UHGV virus genome: UHGV-1532611
Length of the DNA stretch: 19,417 nucleotides
Strand: one strand, 5' to 3'
Source of the DNA: a virus
Positions 2,939 to 15,275 of the stretch are shown here, piece by piece. Under the pieces are notes generated by a model. The model did not search any database. It saw nothing but the letters and a program-made list of their open reading frames with translations, and was not told the origin of the DNA. The stretch's first letter is position 1. Each line of letters opens with the position of its first letter. The position numbers were made by a program, and so were the translations under genes.

Positions 2939-4843
2939 ATGCTAAAACTTAAGCGCGATTACACAGTTCAGGGTATTGATTCTGTTGATGGTGTTTTTGA
3001 AATTGCGTTCAGTTCTGAAACTCCTGTTGAAAGACAGATTCAGGATGAATACGGTCAAAACATTACTGTTAATGAAATTCTCGTTCATGACGGCTCACAT
3101 AACGCTGACTTGACCCGAATTAATAACGGTGCTGCTTTGCTGTTTAACCATGATTTTGATAAACACTTGGGAATCGTTATTCCTGATTCTGTTCGAATCG
3201 ATGAAGACAAAATAGGACGAGCAAAAGTCCAATTCAGTCAACACGGTGAATTAGCTAAAGAAATCGGTGCAAAAGTTCAAGAAGGAACAATTAGTAAAAT
3301 CTCTTTCGGATATGACATTAATGAATATCACTTAGAAGGCGACAATCTTATTGTTACGAAATGGGCACCATATGAAATTTCTTTCGTCACTGTTCCTGCT
3401 GACGATAAAGTCGGTTTGGGAAGACTACTAAATACAGATACAACAAACAAACTTAACAAAGGTACTCGAATGAAACGTATTGATGAAATGACTAAAGATG
3501 AACTGGCAGAAATGACTATCGATGAAATTGAAATGCTGTCCGATGAAGATCGTGCAAAGCGTGAAGAAATTCTGGAAGAAGTAGTCGTTGAAAATGAAAA
3601 CGCTGGTGATTCTGCTGTTGAAAAAACTGATGACGCTCCTGCTGCTGTTCCTGCTGGTGACGAACTGACAGAAGAAGAACGCGAAGAAGAAGCGGAAGAA
3701 ATTCTTGAAATCGCACAACGCTACAAAGTAGCACAGAAAGACGTTGCAAGCGCTATCGCTAAAGGCATGACCGCACGTCAATTCAAACGCTCTATTAAAC
3801 CTAATAAATCTGCAACGGTGATTCGCAACATGACTAAAGATACTAAACAAACTCTGGAAAATAAATTCGACCTTGGCGATGCTGTTCGCTCTATGATGAA
3901 TGGTAAAGCTGTTCGCGGTGCTGCTGCTGAATATACTCAAGAAATGTCCCGTAAGCGTCTGATGCGCGGTGCTAACGTTTCTCAAGGTATCTATATGCCA
4001 GTTAGTGCTCTGCAAGGCAAACGCGCTATTAACACTGTATCAACTGTTTCCGCAGTACAAGAAACTGTTCAGCGTTATGATTCATTCGTTGAAATGCTGT
4101 TGAAAGACACTGTTGCTGATAAGCTGGGAGTTAACTTCCTGACTGGTCTGACTACTCCGATTTCTGTTCCTAAGCAGACAAAATCAAGTGTTGATGCATT
4201 CGGTTTCGTTGATGAAAACGGTGAATCTCCAGAAGGCGAAAGCAAATTCGAAAACATTCAGTTTATGCCTAAGACATTTACTGGTGGTAACCCGATTTCT
4301 CGTCAAGCTCTGTTGACTCTGCCTAATCTGGGTGCGTTCATTTCTGACCATATCGTGAATTTCTCACGCGCTAAACTGGAAGGTCTGATGTTCGGTTCTA
4401 TTACCGACGCAAAAGCTCCTCAGTCTATCGTTGCTCAGTTAGTAGCAAAACAGATGGGAATGACCTACAAAGAATTCGTTGTTGAAGCTGCTAAAGCTAA
4501 AGGCGACGGCGTAGCAATGGACAAGTTCAAATATTTGATGGCTGCTGCTCTTGAAGGTGATTTGAAAACCACTCTGCGTGACGCTGGTGTTGCTGGTTAT
4601 ATCATCGACGACCTGAACAAACTGGGCGGACATGATGTTATCGGTTCCGGTCTTGTTAAAGAAGGTCAGGTTATCTCTGGTGACTTCTCTGCTGTAACCG
4701 TAGCTGAGTGGGAAGGTCTTGCTCTTGACCTAGACGACACAACTTACCGTAACAAAGGCGCTATCGTTCCTCGCGTTTGGGCTGATATCGATTGGAAAGT
4801 TTGTGCTGATGATCGTCTGTTCCTGCACGAAAAACAAGCCTAA
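2939..4843 (+). CDS. Prohead protease - scaffold (delta-like) - major capsid protein fusion
   Basis: 634-aa continuous ORF. Residues 1-170 have the HK97-type prohead protease (S78/U35) pattern (NHDFDKHLG, ISFGYD, EISFVTVPADD). Residues about 175-290 are acidic and helical (EEEREEEAEEILE), like a scaffold or delta domain. The C-terminal ~350 aa are of major-capsid size and composition. A terminator follows the gene. Confidence 0.8.
   Translation: MLKLKRDYTVQGIDSVDGVFEIAFSSETPVERQIQDEYGQNITVNEILVHDGSHNADLTRINNGAALLFNHDFDKHLGIVIPDSVRIDEDKIGRAKVQFSQHGELAKEIGAKVQEGTISKISFGYDINEYHLEGDNLIVTKWAPYEISFVTVPADDKVGLGRLLNTDTTNKLNKGTRMKRIDEMTKDELAEMTIDEIEMLSDEDRAKREEILEEVVVENENAGDSAVEKTDDAPAAVPAGDELTEEEREEEAEEILEIAQRYKVAQKDVASAIAKGMTARQFKRSIKPNKSATVIRNMTKDTKQTLENKFDLGDAVRSMMNGKAVRGAAAEYTQEMSRKRLMRGANVSQGIYMPVSALQGKRAINTVSTVSAVQETVQRYDSFVEMLLKDTVADKLGVNFLTGLTTPISVPKQTKSSVDAFGFVDENGESPEGESKFENIQFMPKTFTGGNPISRQALLTLPNLGAFISDHIVNFSRAKLEGLMFGSITDAKAPQSIVAQLVAKQMGMTYKEFVVEAAKAKGDGVAMDKFKYLMAAALEGDLKTTLRDAGVAGYIIDDLNKLGGHDVIGSGLVKEGQVISGDFSAVTVAEWEGLALDLDDTTYRNKGAIVPRVWADIDWKVCADDRLFLHEKQA
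3427..3436 (+). promoter_or_regulatory. Internal copy of actaaataca, 33 nt upstream of the in-frame ATG at 3470
   Basis: Identical 10-mer to 2881-2890; followed by an SD-like aaaggta (3457-3463) and ATG 3470 (Met178 of the fusion ORF). Confidence 0.3.
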
Positions 4844-4844
4844 G

Positions 4845-4874
4845 AAAAGCAAAAGCAAAAGCGAAAGCGAAAGC
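4845..4874 (+). repeat. Tandem hexanucleotide repeat (RAAAGC x5) just after the capsid gene stop
   Basis: aaaagc aaaagc aaaagc gaaagc gaaagc, starting 2 nt after the TAA at 4841-4843 and ending 20 nt before the terminator. Confidence 0.6.
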
Positions 4875-4894
4875 TGAAACTGCTGAATAATCAG

Positions 4895-4920
4895 AGGACT
4901 CCTTCGGGAGTCCTTTTTTC
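4895..4920 (+). terminator. Intrinsic terminator after the capsid gene
   Basis: 8-bp stem aggactcc / ggagtcct around a UUCG tetraloop, followed by a run of six T. Confidence 0.75.
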
Positions 4921-4929
4921 GTTTCTGGA

Positions 4930-4940
4930 CTAAATATAAT
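4930..4940 (+). promoter_or_regulatory. Promoter-like motif ctaaatataat upstream of the 4955 gene
   Basis: Immediately downstream of the capsid terminator; also contains a TATAAT hexamer. Confidence 0.3.
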
Positions 4941-4954
4941 AAAAAGGAGACAAC

Positions 4955-5251
4955 ATGATTTTTCCATATTCAGAAAAACAAAAACAGTCTTTCTTAACTC
5001 GTTTCGGACAGAAAATCAAAATTAACGATTCTGATGAACTCGGTATTGTTGAAATTGAGATTAACAACGATAACGGACAAGTAAGCGAGACAATCTATAT
5101 AACCGCTGATATCAATAAAGTTAAGCAAGAAGATGAAGTTCTATTAAACGAGATTCTGTATACCATTGCGTATCTTGTTAATGATGGTTCAGGACTTGCT
5201 AATTGTTATCTGGCATTTAAAGGCGAACAGGAGACATCATTCTATGACTAA
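4955..5251 (+). CDS. Hypothetical protein at the head-tail connector / head completion position
   Basis: 98-aa ORF with a strong SD (aaaaaggaga, 4941-4950). Lies between the capsid gene and the U-like gene. Function assigned from position only. Confidence 0.55.
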   Translation: MIFPYSEKQKQSFLTRFGQKIKINDSDELGIVEIEINNDNGQVSETIYITADINKVKQEDEVLLNEILYTIAYLVNDGSGLANCYLAFKGEQETSFYD

Positions 5252-5642
5252 TCTGCCACGTTTAGGAATTAAACGCGCTCTGGAAGAAATAATCGTTAAA
5301 GAACTTAATCTGAAATACGTCAAAAACGCTTTCACAACTGGTGTTAAAGAACCTGTTCAAGTAATGATTCCAGGAATGACAGAAGAATATACGCGAATCG
5401 GTTTGCAATCGAAACTTGCAAGTGTTCTTAGTATTACGATTGATATTTTCTCAGAGAAAAGCGAAACAGGCGTTCACAAAGCCGTTTACGACTTAATTTC
5501 TATTAAAGCTAATCATGAAAAACTTATCCCATTTAAAATCGATAAGATTTATCCAAGTTCGAGCTTCACTGATTATGATAGTGAAGCATCAAATGGTCAT
5601 GTTAGCGCACAAATAATTTTAACTTTCGAATACTTAATGTGA
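5244..5642 (+). CDS. Tail terminator protein (lambda gpU-like)
   Basis: Start chosen at ATG 5244 (SD aggaga at 5229-5234), which overlaps the stop of the upstream gene (ATGACTAA); the ORF track begins this frame at 5166. The product is 132 aa, like gpU (131 aa), and its C-terminus ILTFEYLM resembles gpU's VITYEM. Confidence 0.65.
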   Translation: MTNLPRLGIKRALEEIIVKELNLKYVKNAFTTGVKEPVQVMIPGMTEEYTRIGLQSKLASVLSITIDIFSEKSETGVHKAVYDLISIKANHEKLIPFKIDKIYPSSSFTDYDSEASNGHVSAQIILTFEYLM

Positions 5643-5649
5643 GACTAAA

Positions 5650-6675
5650 ATGACAAACGATATTTTTGTAGGAAATAACGTCAGAGTTTCAGTTAATCCG
5701 CTAATCGTTGAAATCCCAGGATATAACGACCCAGGTTATGTAAGCACTGATAAACTGGCTGCATTCCCTGTTATCGGATTTAGAAAAGAAGTTCAGACAC
5801 TAGAAGATTACAGAACCGATTTCACAACGAAACTTTCAGGTGACGTAACAATTAACGACACTTCAATAAGCTTATTTGAAGACAGTTCTGACCCAGTTTA
5901 TCAGTTGCTTGATGAAGCTCTTATGGAAAAGAAACTCCTTAGATTCAGAAGTCTTTATGTTATCGATGGAGAAACAAAGAAAGATAATGATGCTGGTCTT
6001 TATCATATTTTTAATGCTTATGTAACGAAGAAAGAAACATCAGGTTCGGCTAACTCAGTCGTTACAACAACTTTTAATCTTTCTCCTGATGGTCAGTTGT
6101 TTACAGGTTTTGCTGAATTCTCAGTTCCGTTAAACGTTGGCGATTATGGTATTGGTGCTGGTACAGAAGAAATCGCAGGCGTTAAAGACTTAGGATTATT
6201 AACTGGTAACAGATGTGTAACAGTCGATGCAACAAACAGCGATAACCCTTATAACTCTGGCACGTCTGCTATGGCTATTCAGCATCCTGATGGTCAAGGT
6301 TGGGAGCTTATTGGTTCGTCAGTCGGTAATCCAAGCATCAGAATCAGAAACAAACAACAAAGCGGTGAAACTGTTACTGAATCTCCGTGGGTCAAAGTCT
6401 ATACAGAACTTGAACGTCCAACTCCTGAAGATATTAATGCTTTGCCTATTACTGGTGGAGAACTCAAAGGATCTTTGACTATTCAGGAATATCTGAACGT
6501 TCGTAAAAAGATTTCTGCGCCACAAGGTGAAATCTTGGCTCTAAATAGTAATGAAATTAACTCAACTTCTGTCAAGGTCAAAGGCAAAGAAGTCTATTCT
6601 CCAAGTAATAAACCAACGCCATTAGAGATTAATTGTGTAGCGTTAGGAGAAACCTTAGACGCAGGAGTATTTTAA
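5650..6675 (+). CDS. Major tail (tube) protein, gpV-like N-domain plus a ~180-aa C-terminal extension
   Basis: Directly follows the U-like gene as V does in lambda. The N-terminal ~160 aa are paralogous to the 9833-10309 product (AFP..G..EV.T......KL.G......D shared). The C-terminal half is Ser/Thr/Gly-rich, consistent with an Ig-like decoration domain as in gpV. Confidence 0.65.
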   Translation: MTNDIFVGNNVRVSVNPLIVEIPGYNDPGYVSTDKLAAFPVIGFRKEVQTLEDYRTDFTTKLSGDVTINDTSISLFEDSSDPVYQLLDEALMEKKLLRFRSLYVIDGETKKDNDAGLYHIFNAYVTKKETSGSANSVVTTTFNLSPDGQLFTGFAEFSVPLNVGDYGIGAGTEEIAGVKDLGLLTGNRCVTVDATNSDNPYNSGTSAMAIQHPDGQGWELIGSSVGNPSIRIRNKQQSGETVTESPWVKVYTELERPTPEDINALPITGGELKGSLTIQEYLNVRKKISAPQGEILALNSNEINSTSVKVKGKEVYSPSNKPTPLEINCVALGETLDAGVF

Positions 6676-6687
6676 CGGATAAAGAAA

Positions 6688-9600
6688 ATGGCAAATAATA
6701 AAGTTAAACATTATAGAACAGACGTCGCCGGAAGAAAGCCAGAAGCGAAAAACATGCTTGATGGTGAAATCGCTATTAACTTAGCCGATAAAAAGATTTT
6801 TACTAAATTCGGTGACGCTGTTATTAACATCGGTAATGGTGCTGATGCTGTTGTTGAAGGCGGTCAGACCTTTACTGGAAAAATTAAAGCAAGTGATATT
6901 GAATCCGATTCTAATCTGACTTTAAAAAATCTTGATAAAAGCGATATTGTTTTTGCTGATGAACACGACAAAGCAAAAGCACGTATTAGTTCTCCTGCTC
7001 AGACAGACTCTAAAGGTGAACTTCGTGTTACGGTAGCGAAAGGAAAAGGTACAGGAGAGAGTTCTGACTTCGTGCTTAACGGTAATGGTCAGTTATCTTT
7101 GCCTGCTGCTCCTGTTGCTCCTGATAGCGCTACGCGTAAAGATTACGTTGATTCTGAAATCAGCAAAGTTCAAACAGGTTCAAGTGCTGACCTGACGAAA
7201 CTCGAACAGAAAGTTGATGCTAACGACGCTGCTATTAACACTCGCGTTGATAATCTGAATTCAAAAGTTGACCAGAACGACACGGCTATTAATACGAAAG
7301 TTGATGCGAATAAAGCTGATGCTGACGAAAAGATTAAAGCAGTTAATGACCGTTTGACTGTTGATAATCAGACTCTGAAAGACATGATTGACACCAAAGT
7401 TAATAAAGCTGGCGACACGATGACTGGCGACTTAACTGTTCCTTCTGTTCATGCTGCTGGTAATGTATACGCAGGAACTTTGAAAGTTACACCTGCTGGT
7501 AATAACGGTGATGTTCTGAGTATTGAAAACCACGGCAGAACTTCAAAGACTATTCATCAAATTGCATACGCAACGGATACGGATGATCGACTGTTATTTC
7601 GTCGTGATGCTAACGAAGGAACCGACGCATTAGATCTAATGACCATGACTTGGGGAAAAACAGGCAGAGGAATGTCAATTGATATTTCAGGTCAAGCTAG
7701 AATCACTGATGCAGTAACAACTCCTTTAATGTCCGTTGCAAGCAACTTTGCCGTTGGAAATTCACTGGGTTTAAACTCTATCGCGATTGGTGATTCCGAC
7801 ACTGGTTTTAAATGGAGAGAAGACGGATGGTTAAACTTCTATTCAAATAACGTTGTAACAGCTTCTATTGCAGGATCTGAAAACTACTTTAATAGAAAAA
7901 CTCATTTCCGTTTCAGAAGTGATGATGGTGATTCGAATCTGATGGCTCCTGAAGGTTATTCATTAATTAATATCGATACGACAACCGACGGTAATAACAT
8001 TGGTGACGCCACGACTTATTTCGGATTAGTTAATGGTGGAAAATATAATCATTATCTGAGAGGTTCAGGCAGAACTTATATTGATACTAAAGAAGGTCTT
8101 GGTGTTGCTGGCCCTGCAAGTTTCTATAAAACGATTTATAATAATAAGCCTTACGGATGGTATGACTCGGAAAGCTTACCCGACTGGAACACTCCTGAGC
8201 AACAATCAAATCATTTAAGAAAAGTTAGAGCCGTTGGTGCTGGATCCATTTATCATGAGTTGGCAATGGCTAATCATCCTGACGATAGGCTGGATAACTC
8301 TATATGTTGGTTTCATGGTGATACTCCTGAATATTGGATGGGTTCATTAAACACCAATGGTCGATTGAATCTTGCAAGTGGTGTTTCTGTCAACGGCGAA
8401 TCTAATGCTATTCAGTTGAATATTCCTGCGTCGAATCAGGCAAGTTATATGTCTGGCAATATGGACGGTCGCAATAATACCTGGATTCTTGGCAAGACAA
8501 GTGAGAATCTCGATATTGTCTGGTCTCAGAATATGAGAAATGATTTCTCTACGTCATCTGGTGTTACTCTTAGAACTAACGGATCCGTGACGGTTCAGAC
8601 TGGTACTAATACCGCGATGGATATTCAGCATAATACAATTCAAATTGATGGTGCAAGATGGGCAGCAACCAATGATCATGCTTACGCTAATCAATGGAGA
8701 CAAAATGCTCCTATGCAGATTAACTTCGGAGCAGTTGCTGGTGAAAGTGATTATTATCCCGGATATTCGATGAACTCTGTTTCCGTAGGACACGGATTCT
8801 CTACTGTTGTTGAATTAGGAACTATTAGAGGACCAGCTAATTCATGGGGCAAAGGAATTCTTCGTGTTGGGACGAAAGAAGAATCGACGTTCGGTAAAAT
8901 GGCTAATTATGAATTTGATATCGATGGTCGTTTTGCTGTTCCTGGAAAAATTAATACTCCTTCTGTTGAAACAAATCGTTTAACAAGTTTTGGTATTAAC
9001 ACGGACAACGTACTAGGTGGAAACTCAATCGCGTTTGGTGATAACGATACAGGTATTCGACAAGTTACGGACGGAAACTTAAGCATTTTTACTAATGGTA
9101 TTCAAATCGCAACCTTTAACACAGCTGGTTTGACAATTGATCGGTCAATTACGATTAACACCCATAATGAGTCTCGCGGTGTTTATGTTGGAAACGTTAG
9201 AACCGGGGCAAGCAATGCGATGATTCAAGGTGTCGTTGACGGTTGGCCGCAGTGGTCAGCGTGGCGTGATCGTCCTGCGGGAATGATTGTTGAAGCTCAG
9301 ACTCGTGATAAATGTATTAATATCTGGAAACATGTTCATTGGGGCACAGAATACGGTGCTGCGATGGACATTTATAATCCGGGTAGTTCTGCTCCCGAGG
9401 CTGCACTTCACATTGGTGGTGCAGACTATCTATTCCTCGGTAATGGAACAGCAAATGCGATCCAATGGGTTAGCACTTCTGATAAACGTCTGAAATCGAA
9501 CTTTGAAGAAATTGAAAACGCAGTTGATAAAGTCGAGAAACTTACTGGTTACGTATACGATAAGAAATCTGATTTAGTCAAAACTGAATATTCATTCGAA

Positions 9601-9771
9601 GTTCGTGAAGCAGGTATTATTGCTCAAGAACTGAAAGAAGTATTACCAGAAGCTGTTAGTTCTTTCGGACCTGACGAAATTCTTGGTGTTAACTCTGCTG
9701 CTGTAAACGCGTTGCTGGTTAATGCTATCAAGGAATTAAGTGCTCGCGTTAAAGAACTTGAAGCTAAATAA
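6688..9771 (+). CDS. Tail fiber protein with C-terminal S74-type intramolecular chaperone (auto-cleaving) domain
   Basis: 1027 aa. Contains the KAGDTMTGDLTV phage-fiber repeat motif, a helical repeat region (DANDAAINTRVDNLNSKVDQNDTAINTKVD), two copies of an LG.NSIA.GD.DTG motif, and the C-terminal SDKRLKS...GIIAQEL...AIKEL domain that closely resembles the T5 pb1 / K1F endosialidase chaperone domain. Confidence 0.88.
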   Translation: MANNKVKHYRTDVAGRKPEAKNMLDGEIAINLADKKIFTKFGDAVINIGNGADAVVEGGQTFTGKIKASDIESDSNLTLKNLDKSDIVFADEHDKAKARISSPAQTDSKGELRVTVAKGKGTGESSDFVLNGNGQLSLPAAPVAPDSATRKDYVDSEISKVQTGSSADLTKLEQKVDANDAAINTRVDNLNSKVDQNDTAINTKVDANKADADEKIKAVNDRLTVDNQTLKDMIDTKVNKAGDTMTGDLTVPSVHAAGNVYAGTLKVTPAGNNGDVLSIENHGRTSKTIHQIAYATDTDDRLLFRRDANEGTDALDLMTMTWGKTGRGMSIDISGQARITDAVTTPLMSVASNFAVGNSLGLNSIAIGDSDTGFKWREDGWLNFYSNNVVTASIAGSENYFNRKTHFRFRSDDGDSNLMAPEGYSLINIDTTTDGNNIGDATTYFGLVNGGKYNHYLRGSGRTYIDTKEGLGVAGPASFYKTIYNNKPYGWYDSESLPDWNTPEQQSNHLRKVRAVGAGSIYHELAMANHPDDRLDNSICWFHGDTPEYWMGSLNTNGRLNLASGVSVNGESNAIQLNIPASNQASYMSGNMDGRNNTWILGKTSENLDIVWSQNMRNDFSTSSGVTLRTNGSVTVQTGTNTAMDIQHNTIQIDGARWAATNDHAYANQWRQNAPMQINFGAVAGESDYYPGYSMNSVSVGHGFSTVVELGTIRGPANSWGKGILRVGTKEESTFGKMANYEFDIDGRFAVPGKINTPSVETNRLTSFGINTDNVLGGNSIAFGDNDTGIRQVTDGNLSIFTNGIQIATFNTAGLTIDRSITINTHNESRGVYVGNVRTGASNAMIQGVVDGWPQWSAWRDRPAGMIVEAQTRDKCINIWKHVHWGTEYGAAMDIYNPGSSAPEAALHIGGADYLFLGNGTANAIQWVSTSDKRLKSNFEEIENAVDKVEKLTGYVYDKKSDLVKTEYSFEVREAGIIAQELKEVLPEAVSSFGPDEILGVNSAAVNALLVNAIKELSARVKELEAK
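9478..9768 (+). other. Region of the tail fiber gene encoding the S74 intramolecular chaperone domain (aa 931-1027)
   Basis: The SDKRLK motif begins at codon 9478-9480, followed by the conserved GxxAQELKEVLPE and AIKEL...ELEAK segments; released by autocleavage in known homologs. Confidence 0.75.
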
Positions 9772-9774
9772 CAA

Positions 9775-9794
9775 AAAGGGGAGAAATCCCCTTT
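9775..9794 (+). terminator. Hairpin / weak terminator after the tail fiber gene
   Basis: aaagggga-gaaa-tccccttt: GC stem with a GNRA loop; the U-tract is short (three T, part of the stem). Confidence 0.5.
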
Positions 9795-9795
9795 G

Positions 9796-9805
9796 CTAAA
9801 TAAAC
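9796..9805 (+). promoter_or_regulatory. Promoter-like motif ctaaataaac upstream of the 9833 gene
   Basis: Directly after the 9775-9794 hairpin. A near copy (ctaaataac, 9764-9772) overlaps the fiber stop codon. Confidence 0.3.
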
Positions 9806-9832
9806 TATATTAACTCAAATAGGAAATTAAAA

Positions 9833-10309
9833 ATGGCAGACAAATTTGATATTTTTGCTGGCTCTTACGTCAGTGTGTTCTATAACTCAGAAATTGCAAA
9901 CACCGATCTGAATTCAGAAAAGTTTGTTGAAATTCCTGAAACTGGTGCATTCCCTTCTACGGGTATTGAACGCGAAGTTATTACAGCTCCTAACTTCTCT
10001 CACAAATACTCCCGTAAACTGGTTGGTCGTGGCTCTGTTCCTGATATCGACTTGACCGTTAACTATATTCCAGAAAGCGTTCATGATGTTCTGATTAAGC
10101 TTGCGGAAGATGGTAAACGTGGTCAGTTTAAAATCGTTTATTGGATTGATGCTACTAAAAAACTGGGTGTTGCAAAAGTTTATAACGGCTTCTTGTCAAG
10201 CGCTGTTCATAATGGCGGTGAATCAGAAGTTCAAGGTCTGACAATGACACTGAGTGTTGATGGTGGTCCTGTTGTTTCTGGTGTTGTTGATTTGACATCA
10301 AGTGATTAA
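9833..10309 (+). CDS. Tail-tube-fold protein: second gpV-like paralog, or a distal tail (M/Dit-like) ring protein
   Basis: 158 aa. Aligns by eye with the N-domain of the 5650-6675 product, and its C-terminal pattern (KIVYWID...VYNGFLSSAV) resembles the gpV N-domain as remembered. Preceded by a terminator and promoter-like motif, followed by a terminator. Confidence 0.6.
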   Translation: MADKFDIFAGSYVSVFYNSEIANTDLNSEKFVEIPETGAFPSTGIEREVITAPNFSHKYSRKLVGRGSVPDIDLTVNYIPESVHDVLIKLAEDGKRGQFKIVYWIDATKKLGVAKVYNGFLSSAVHNGGESEVQGLTMTLSVDGGPVVSGVVDLTSSD

Positions 10310-10313
10310 TTAA

Positions 10314-10337
10314 AAAGACTCCGCAAGGGGTCTTTTT
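10314..10337 (+). terminator. Intrinsic terminator after the second tail-tube paralog
   Basis: agactcc-gcaa-ggggtct (7-bp stem with one G-U pair, GNRA loop) followed by seven T. Confidence 0.7.
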
Positions 10338-10341
10338 TTGG

Positions 10342-10351
10342 CTCTAAATAA
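10342..10351 (+). promoter_or_regulatory. Promoter-like motif ctaaataaag upstream of the 10367 gene
   Basis: Exact 10-mer shared with 14477-14486 and 15967-15976; sits just after the 10314-10337 terminator. Confidence 0.35.
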
Positions 10352-10366
10352 AGTCAGAGGTGAAAC

Positions 10367-10783
10367 ATGTTTAAATTTCAAGCTGACTTATCAAAATTAC
10401 TTAACCGCTATATCAATCAGCAACACGTTTTCGGTCAAAACGACTGTAATATCCTTGTTGCTGAATATATCGACCTTGTTTGTGCTACTGAATACACAGA
10501 CAAATTAAAAGACAAATACACGAGTATTCCTGAAGGTCTCAAGATTTGCAAAGAGCTAACTGGTTTTAATAACGTTCTCGAAGCGTGTGAAACGCATCTT
10601 GAGAAATCAGAAACTATAGAAACAGGCTCGGTTATCTTAATTAAGAAAAAACATAAAAACCGTGTCTATTACGTTGCATCTATCGTTTTTAATAATAGAG
10701 CATTAGTTGAACATGAAAATAAATATCAACTGATAAACGTCAACGATTTTAATTTTGAATTAATTTTTAACAGGAGAAAATAA
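10367..10783 (+). CDS. NlpC/P60-like tail tip protein (gpK C-terminal domain homolog, no MPN/JAB domain)
   Basis: 138 aa. HVFGQNDCNILVAEY matches the Cys motif of the gpK NlpC/P60 domain (HGVTDCYTLF) and GSVILIKKKHKNRVYYVASIVFNNRALVEH matches GDVLL...NHAAIY.GDGELLHH. Stop overlaps the start of the J-like gene (TAATG). Confidence 0.5.
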   Translation: MFKFQADLSKLLNRYINQQHVFGQNDCNILVAEYIDLVCATEYTDKLKDKYTSIPEGLKICKELTGFNNVLEACETHLEKSETIETGSVILIKKKHKNRVYYVASIVFNNRALVEHENKYQLINVNDFNFELIFNRRK

Positions 10784-14517: not shown

Positions 14518-14802
14518 ATGGTCGATATAGCACTGATCATTTCCATCTTGGGTGCTCTAGGAGGTTTCTTGGCTTGGGTTTATGCCGAAATTAAATCAAA
14601 CAATGAAAAACGAATTGACCTTGAGAAACGTTTCTCAGACATCGAAAAAAGCATAGCCGTTAATGACGCAAAAGATGCTTCGCTTATAAGCGATATAACA
14701 CGACAACAGGATGAATTTCGAGAGGTCAAATCTGATTTGAAGAATTTAGAAGGAAGAACAGCAAAGCTAGATATCGACCTAGCAGTTCTAAGAGGAAAAT
14801 GA
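14518..14802 (+). CDS. Small membrane-anchored coiled-coil protein (one N-terminal TM helix); function unknown
   Basis: 94 aa with two SD-like elements upstream (aaggagg 14489-14495, aaggag 14505-14510). IALIISILGALGGFLAWVYA is a predicted TM helix, followed by a charged helical region. Stop overlaps the next start (ATGA). No cysteine, so not a lipoprotein. Confidence 0.6.
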   Translation: MVDIALIISILGALGGFLAWVYAEIKSNNEKRIDLEKRFSDIEKSIAVNDAKDASLISDITRQQDEFREVKSDLKNLEGRTAKLDIDLAVLRGK

Positions 14803-15275
14803 AAAGAAAAGAGATTCCGATTTATAAGCAAGAACTCTTTCAAAAGCAAAAAGGTCTTTGTGCTTTAACTGGCATAAAGATTCATGAAGTTAATAAAGCC
14901 CATCTTGACCATGACCATATATTAACAGGCTCTAACGCAGGCAGATGCAGAGGATTATTAATCGCTCAAGCAAACGTCCTAGAGGGCAGAATAAAACATC
15001 AGTTTAAACGTTCGGGTCTCGATGGGAAAATTGACTACATCGAGTTTTTGAAGAATCTTGTTCAGTATCTTGAAAAAGACTACTCAGACAATCCTACGCA
15101 TCCACAACTTATTCCTGATTTAAAGAAGGCGTTCTCTCGAAAAAATCTTTCTGAGATGAAAGCTATTACAGGTTCAAACCTTAAAACGAAAAAGGAGCTT
15201 GAAAAAGTCTACTCAAACCAAATAAAGGTGAAATATGAAAATGAAATATCTCCAAGCATTGGCAAAACACGCTAA
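14799..15275 (+). CDS. T4 endonuclease VII (gp49)-like junction-resolving / HNH-fold nuclease
   Basis: 158 aa (T4 endo VII is 157 aa). HLDHDH, GRCRGLL, N..EG and KHQFKRSGL.G..DYIEFL.NL..YL..DYS.N..HP are collinear with T4 endo VII as remembered. The catalytic Asp/His/His/Asn/Glu equivalents are present. Confidence 0.8.
   Translation: MKRKEIPIYKQELFQKQKGLCALTGIKIHEVNKAHLDHDHILTGSNAGRCRGLLIAQANVLEGRIKHQFKRSGLDGKIDYIEFLKNLVQYLEKDYSDNPTHPQLIPDLKKAFSRKNLSEMKAITGSNLKTKKELEKVYSNQIKVKYENEISPSIGKTR

Follow-up and report, generated by a model that had tools for sequence, protein, structure and literature searches.

A probable side tail fiber of a rare siphovirus-type Escherichia coli prophage, apparently built from a T-even gp37-type shaft, a T5-type tip and an S74 chaperone

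The window analyzed here is the UHGV virus genome UHGV-1532611, a stretch of 19,417 nucleotides (nt), and the gene in question is the intact open reading frame (ORF) at 6688-9771 on the plus strand (stop codon included), which encodes a tail fiber precursor of 1027 amino acids (aa) and 111 kDa. The ORF starts 12 nt past the stop codon of the upstream gene. PHROG tail-fiber families matched the protein, with phrog_1699 as the best match (E 1.4e-114), and in E. coli MS 115-1 it is annotated as 'tail fiber domain-containing protein' (WP_001325354.1). The chromosomes of E. coli MS 115-1 and 2021CK-01361 contain the region with 100% identity, and related copies were present in just 7 of 5426 complete E. 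coli genomes. The protein is quite probably a trimeric side (lateral) tail fiber of a rare siphovirus-type E. coli prophage, built of modules known in other phages. Its features are listed below, with AlphaFold confidence given as the predicted local distance difference test (pLDDT) and one match to a profile hidden Markov model (HMM).

6688..6861, plus strand: N-terminal gp37-type domain, aa 1-58; by BLASTP aa 5-58 matched aa 6-66 of CF1 gp37 (31% identity, E 2e-8)
7135..7416, plus strand: alpha-helical (coiled-coil type) stalk, aa ~150-243; short VD.N..AINT.VD repeats; AlphaFold helices 150-162 and 169-240, pLDDT ~66-76
7417..9198, plus strand: gp37-type shaft, aa 244-837; 36% identity over 611 columns to CF1 gp37, E 4e-103
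7729..7923, plus strand: module copy 1, aa 348-412; motif LGLNSIAIGDSDTGFKWREDGWL at nt 7765-7833; module HMM i-Evalue 2.6e-31
8971..9171, plus strand: module copy 2, aa 762-828; motif LGGNSIAFGDNDTGIRQVTDGNL at nt 9013-9081
9199..9477, plus strand: tip domain of the siphovirus lateral-fiber type, aa 838-930; 40-45% identity to T5-like L-shaped/lateral fiber ends
9475..9480, plus strand: predicted autocleavage site Thr930 / Ser931, aligned with the S16 site
9478..9768, plus strand: Peptidase S74 / intramolecular chaperone, aa 931-1027; 97 aa, 10.7 kDa
9775..9794, no strand assigned: GC-rich hairpin just past the stop codon, AAAGGGGAGAAATCCCCTTT, from a terminator-like scan and the sequence

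Most of the fiber was collinear with the long tail fiber protein gp37 of T-even phages. In the BLASTP comparison with gp37 of the Citrobacter Moonvirus CF1 (784 aa), aa 5-58, 244-837 and 931-1025 aligned in the same order, and aa 59-243 and aa ~838-930 were extra. The helical stalk, whose DNA repeats had spacings of 54 and 33 nt, sits within the larger insertion aa 59-243 that is missing from CF1 gp37. The N-terminus was the most conserved part of the fiber among orthologs (80-97% mean pairwise identity), and aa 1-58 is presumed to be the virion-attachment end. A total of 1648 phage records were matched by tblastn, those listed being T-even gp37 genes, and relatives of the shaft comprised 169 representative clusters at E<=1e-3 in a library of 1.84 billion representative proteins, all of which were read.

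The end of the fiber was related to siphovirus lateral fibers. Residues 820-935 matched 426 phage records, of which the best-scoring were T5-like phages. Residues 741-1027 aligned over 286 columns with orf22 of Salmonella phage S124, an L-shaped tail fiber (40% identity, E 2e-55), and over 277 columns with the fiber of Escherichia phage Stevie_ev116, a Tlsvirus (42% identity, E 3e-52). Both aligned throughout the tip domain. This domain is absent from T-even gp37 and likewise from the fibers P0010, P0021-P0023, and P0028. From module copy 2 to the cleavage site there were ~103 aa here and 107-108 aa in S124 orf22 and the Stevie_ev116 fiber, compared with 8-19 aa in the T-even gp37 proteins examined. 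The tip was modeled with pLDDT 66-84 over aa 850-930. By these alignments, the fiber is a mosaic of a T-even gp37 shaft and a T5-type tip.

The sequence-only reading had taken the C-terminal ~97 aa for an auto-cleaving S74 intramolecular chaperone, and on this assignment the sequence, the invariant Ser/Lys pair, and the predicted fold all agreed. From aa 931, where the sequence SDKRLKSNFEEIE begins, exactly 97 residues remain to the C-terminus. Pfam Peptidase_S74 (PF13884) matched aa 931-990 (E 2.1e-14) at 54 bits, above the gathering cut-off of 22. It also matched all 23 aligned relatives, in which S931, D932, R934, and K936 were invariant. The S-D-x-R-x-K motif was also found in T2, G8, CF1, Ci1, CGG4-1, S124 orf22, and the Stevie fiber. 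A PDB profile search matched 6f45_A (E 1.4e-36). The model of aa 741-1027 had a mean pLDDT of 77, with 88-95 in the chaperone; a Foldseek search with this C-terminal model matched 7dc3 (E 6e-5), and the predicted fold resembled the solved chaperones, with the following structure comparison scores.

7dc3, MyRF ICA domain: 9.1
4uw8, T5 pb1 with its chaperone: 6.7
3gw6, K1F endosialidase chaperone: 6.3
3gud, GA-1 neck appendage: 6.1

Cleavage is predicted between Thr930 and Ser931 from the alignment with the S16 gp37 cleavage site DLNVS^SDRRIKK (PMC7917993), with predicted products of 100.3 and 10.7 kDa. No tail-fiber assembly gene was found among the window ORFs scanned. It is plausible that the fiber needs no separate chaperone, which is consistent with the lack of a tail-fiber assembly gene or gp38 gene in the window.

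Judging from the family, trimerization would start at the three C-terminal chaperone domains, which would then provide the template on which the intertwined distal fiber folds. The Ser931-Lys936 dyad would then cut the Thr930-Ser931 bond, which would free the 10.7-kDa fragment and leave a 100-kDa mature chain with its own tip exposed. The tip domain is predicted to be the distal end of the mature fiber. The fiber has this domain and is not followed by a gp38 gene, so direct receptor binding by the mature fiber is most likely. Its receptor is probably O-antigen, lipopolysaccharide, or another surface polysaccharide, bound without cutting; the exposed tip, or a nearby shaft segment, would bind the surface glycan reversibly, as T5-like lateral fibers bind O-antigen. 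LtfA and LtfB of the T5-like phage DT57C, both S74-bearing fibers, recognize O-antigen types (PMC4728585).

Several points weigh against this account of the fiber. Cleavage, trimerization, and receptor binding are all proposed by homology. The shaft fold was poorly modeled in the full-length monomer (mean pLDDT 49), and the tip domain gave no significant structural match. The tip was also fairly conserved: among the 16 tip-bearing orthologs, aa 841-900 had ~77% (76-78%) mean pairwise identity, and the most variable shaft stretches were 561-660, 381-420, and 801-820, the first of them at 40-55%. Because the tip is conserved and these shaft stretches vary more, it may be the shaft that determines specificity; alternatively, the receptor of the tip may be a conserved one. 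The correlation between tip and gp38 was imperfect, as the tip-less ortholog P0021 has no gp38 gene. In addition, an IS3 element interrupts the large terminase gene of the MS 115-1 prophage, so this prophage may be inactive and its fiber copy may never have been assembled into particles.

The variability of the shaft leads to the explanation that the receptor is recognized laterally, mainly by the variable shaft (aa ~560-660, or a present/absent block at 261-340), with the tip as a structural cap or folding nucleus. Besides the difference in conservation between aa 561-660 and the tip, it is favored by the full-length model, in which aa 610-750 were the best-predicted beta part (pLDDT 60-77) and may form a compact domain, and by DT57C LtfA, in which the specificity determinant is narrower than the divergent C-terminal region (PMC4728585). 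However, T4 gp37, the S16 gp37-gp38 complex, and T5 pb1, relatives with solved structures or genetic studies, bind at the distal end (PMC7917993 and established knowledge), the tip domain and gp38 mostly replace each other across loci, and high variability of the shaft may simply mean weak constraint. Lateral recognition by the shaft is considered unlikely.

The relation between tip and gp38 was apparent from the sister prophages. The protein gp38 is usually described as a Straboviridae protein. The gp38 gene lies directly after gp37 in all T-even relatives examined (CF1, G8, T2, CGG4-1, and Ci1). Among the window ORFs scanned there was no GP38 or Gp38_N match, and the next ORF after the fiber encodes a tail-tube-like protein. 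A full gp38 gene follows each of the tip-less fibers P0022, P0023, and P0028, a Gp38_N remnant follows the tip-less P0010, and no gp38 lies downstream of the tip-bearing P0017. Four sister loci of the same backbone had the following arrangements.

L013: tip-bearing fiber, no gp38
L014 (Logan ERR10017058 contig): tip-less fiber, then a full gp38 at 9774-10577 (PF05268, E 2.4e-64, and Gp38_N)
L015: tip-less fiber, then a 67-aa Gp38_N remnant at 6827-7030
L016: tip-less fiber, neither gp38 nor a remnant

DNA identity to the sister prophages was 88-95% up to nt 7253, 7443, or 8331, was then lost, and resumed at nt 9754-9818. The 5' breakpoints correspond to aa ~189, ~252 (at the GDTMTGDLTV motif), and ~548, and the 3' break was always at the stop codon and the hairpin at 9775-9794. 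Such a pattern marks the stretch between the variable 5' breakpoints and the hairpin, in the distal portion of the gene, as a cassette exchanged among related prophages. In the alternative cassette of one sister prophage, a short tip and a chaperone of the T-even type are combined with the gp38 adhesin. We suggest tentatively, as a possibility that could well prove wrong, that a conserved scaffold of the fiber alternates, within this prophage lineage, between a self-sufficient T5-type tip, as here, and a short tip with gp38, as in L014, and that the ~70-aa module described below is the shared junction for cassettes between myovirus long tail fibers and siphovirus lateral fibers. If true, the gp38 adhesin system would be naturally portable to temperate siphoviruses.

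These loci also bear on a second explanation, in which a separate adhesin, with its gene at another place in the prophage or in the host, docks on the tip after cleavage, as gp38 does on gp37 of T2 and S16. The piece of S16 gp37 on which gp38 docks is homologous to the shaft and to module copy 2, one sister prophage uses gp38, and the window holds several small ORFs with no assigned function. Against this stand the lack of a GP38 or Gp38_N match among the scanned ORFs and the ~100 extra residues between copy 2 and the cleavage site, as in the T5-/Tls-like fibers examined, whose loci have no annotated gp38. Because these residues follow module copy 2, the S16-type gp38-docking surface is not terminal here. 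A separate adhesin is very improbable.

The ~600-aa central region had also been regarded as large enough for a beta-helical receptor-binding or glycan-degrading domain, and the size given for it was correct. It is long and rich in beta-strands, and S74 chaperones were first described on endosialidases and are found on tailspikes as well. Among the 23 relatives, Pfam detected S74 and weak gp37_trimer matches only, with no pectate-lyase, beta-helix, sialidase, or other enzyme family, and PHROGs gave tail-fiber families only for the fiber, with no enzyme families. The full-length AlphaFold monomer, built from 23 sequences, had no confident beta-helix and no residue at pLDDT 90 or above. Foldseek with this model returned no enzyme and nothing at E<=1e-3, and the top non-significant hits included several phage fibers; taken alone, the structure-prediction check was a weak test, given the low confidence of the model. 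The alignment of the shaft was shallow, since two further word-index homolog searches, one using the central region and the other a mixed gp37/lateral-fiber alignment, contributed few sequences. The PDB profile search yielded no solved structure covering the shaft (6f45, 7dc3, 8jov, and noise). In our experience, beta-helical depolymerases usually model confidently, even as monomers. Although the monomer model is not good enough to exclude any fold outright, a depolymerase or sialidase-like domain at aa 244-837, which would make the protein a tailspike-like enzyme with a fiber stalk, is hardly credible for a region that is 36% identical to and collinear with T-even gp37 shafts, themselves without a detected enzymatic family.

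The proximal shaft contains a further block of ~85 aa (aa 261-340, 7468-7707), which is present here, in P0002-P0004, in P0010, and in T-even gp37, and missing from most prophage orthologs (P0005-P0019).

The shaft carries a module in two copies. The motif LG.NSIA.GD.DTG.....DG.L, already noticed twice in the initial inspection, had exactly two matches by regular expression, at aa 360-382 (nt 7765-7833) and aa 776-798 (nt 9013-9081); the starts first given, 7769 and 9019, were 4 and 6 nt late, and the coordinates were otherwise right. The repeated unit is longer than the motif, ~65-77 aa, and far above chance: hhalign aligned aa ~334-412 with aa ~752-828 over 77 columns (probability 99.3%, E 3.8e-20), and Smith-Waterman alignment of the copies gave a z of 11.4 against 1000 shuffles. 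A module HMM applied to the six-frame translation of the entire window detected no copies beyond these two. In copy 1, residues G361, S364, I365, G368, D369, D371, T372, G373, D379, and G380 were invariant among the 23 relatives, and copy 2 is the counterpart of the solved distal piece of S16 gp37 (PDB 6F45). With the same HMM, both copies were found in gp37 of T2, G8, CF1, Ci1, and CGG4-1, and one significant copy in the lateral fibers of T5-like S124 and Tlsvirus Stevie_ev116. The internal duplication claimed earlier is therefore genuine, but not as a local event in this gene, since the five T-even gp37 proteins also hold both copies; because of these, and of the single copy in the T5-/Tls-like lateral fibers, the duplication is an ancient trait of the gp37 fiber lineage.

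The fiber gene is flanked by two related proteins.

5650..6675, plus strand: 341-aa upstream protein; phrog_158 at aa 25-149, weak tail-fiber matches at aa 219-333
9833..10309, plus strand: 158-aa tail-tube-like protein; phrog_158, E 5e-16, no Pfam GP38 match

The N-terminal half of the 341-aa protein is tail-tube-like and paralogous to the 158-aa protein (28% identity, E 1e-10), and fiber-like motifs occur in its C-terminal extension of 190 aa. The gene for the 341-aa protein lies immediately upstream of the fiber in all sister loci, and we infer that it is a candidate docking partner of the fiber. The 158-aa protein occupies the position that gp38 has in T-even phages and one sister prophage. 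The proposal that the 341-aa protein is a gp36 homolog was rejected as unproven (BLASTP E 7e-4 and 0.67 over 44 residues, hhalign probability 13%).

The gene order of the window was as follows.

First part: C-terminal part of a gpA-type terminase, portal, protease-capsid fusion, two small proteins
Second part: 341-aa protein with tail-tube-like N-terminal half, fiber, 158-aa tail-tube-like paralog
Third part: DUF6950 protein, 1229-aa J-like tip protein, endonuclease VII, tail assembly chaperone, tape measure

With its tape measure, J-like tip protein, tube-like proteins, and assembly chaperone, the window is a siphovirus-type virion module and the fiber is a side fiber. The terminase of the prophage is of the lambda gpA type. 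The endonuclease VII gene (14799-15275; phrog_423, E 4e-36) lies inside the tail block, between the J-like and minor tail/chaperone genes, and this position was conserved across sister loci.

The prophage adjoins ldtB/ybiR, and its gene content includes a serine recombinase, a retron Ec67-type reverse transcriptase, a TIR protein, and the IS3 element in the large terminase gene. In MS 115-1, the prophage (L001; NZ_CP146665.1 3135140-3179940) carries the retron as an Ec67-type reverse transcriptase/endonuclease; its far end encodes, on the opposite strand, a distal tail protein and a DUF2163 tail protein, and the tape measure is the last gene, beside ldtB. This order of tail genes is unusual, and the prophage is possibly defective. 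The terminase gene is intact in the sister prophage of strain PSS-15 (NZ_AP027709). No match to the fiber gene was obtained by megablast against phages and plasmids, the DNA of the whole window had only trivial matches to phages, and NCBIfam had zero matches for the fiber or its neighbor proteins. In the search for a diversity-generating retroelement target or long DNA repeats within the fiber gene, only the 46-nt motif pair (78% identity) was found. Around the gene there was no strong promoter or classical terminator, only the hairpin after the stop codon, without a U-tract.

Two annotations of related sequences deserve mention. In RefSeq, only the last 135 aa of the orthologous fiber are called at L003 (NZ_AP027790) and L004 (NZ_AP027709); intact fiber ORFs are present there at 4092-6923 (943 aa) and 5973-8822 (949 aa), respectively, with ~2.4 kb of coding sequence unannotated. 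The 141-kb Escherichia phage DCP80 (L017; PQ671644.1), labeled Gaprivervirus, shares the gene order of the structural module with the prophage in its first ~25 kb (1-25000), with homologs of the portal (40%) and the 341-aa protein (36%), and the remainder carries T4-type genes such as motA. Either the record was assembled as a chimera, or the phage is an unusual hybrid.

The gene is a sound, ordinary phage tail fiber. Our analysis assigns a role to a badly annotated prophage gene and corrects the tempting depolymerase reading, which was not supported. No principle of fiber assembly is altered, as the chaperone mechanism and fiber mosaicism are already well established. What is worth keeping is the joining of T-even and T5-type fiber parts in a temperate E. 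coli phage, with a gp37 shaft bearing a T5-type tip here and a gp37-gp38 cassette on the same siphovirus-type backbone elsewhere. This natural cassette pair, a self-sufficient tip versus a short tip with gp38, could guide fiber chimeras for host-range engineering.

The fiber resembles gp37 of the T2/S16 type (PDB 6F45) in that the N-terminal domains are homologous, the shafts are collinear (~600 aa, with 36% identity to CF1 gp37), the LG.NSIA.GD.DTG module is present in both copies, and the C-terminal S74 domain has the S-D-x-R-x-K motif. It differs in the helical-stalk insertion at aa 59-243, in the ~100 extra residues before the cleavage site, and in the lack of a downstream gp38 gene. Moreover, it belongs to a siphovirus-type prophage in which no gp34, gp35, or gp36 genes were found, and it is not part of a gp34-gp35-gp36-gp37 fiber on a T4-like contractile-tail phage. 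With the S74 family (K1F endosialidase 3GW6, GA-1 gp12 3GUD, T5 pb1 4UW8, and MyRF ICA 7DC3), it shares the Pfam match, the C-terminal position, the predicted fold, and the invariant Ser/Lys pair five residues apart; unlike in the endosialidases, the chaperone is carried by a fiber rather than an enzyme, and its autocleavage is predicted. With the lateral fibers of T5-/T1/Tls-like phages (S124 orf22, at the LtfB position, and Stevie_ev116), in whose examined loci no gp38 is annotated, the fiber has in common a C-terminal 285 aa at 40-42% identity, the succession of one module copy, tip, and S74 domain with a similar spacing from module to cleavage site, and the siphovirus context.

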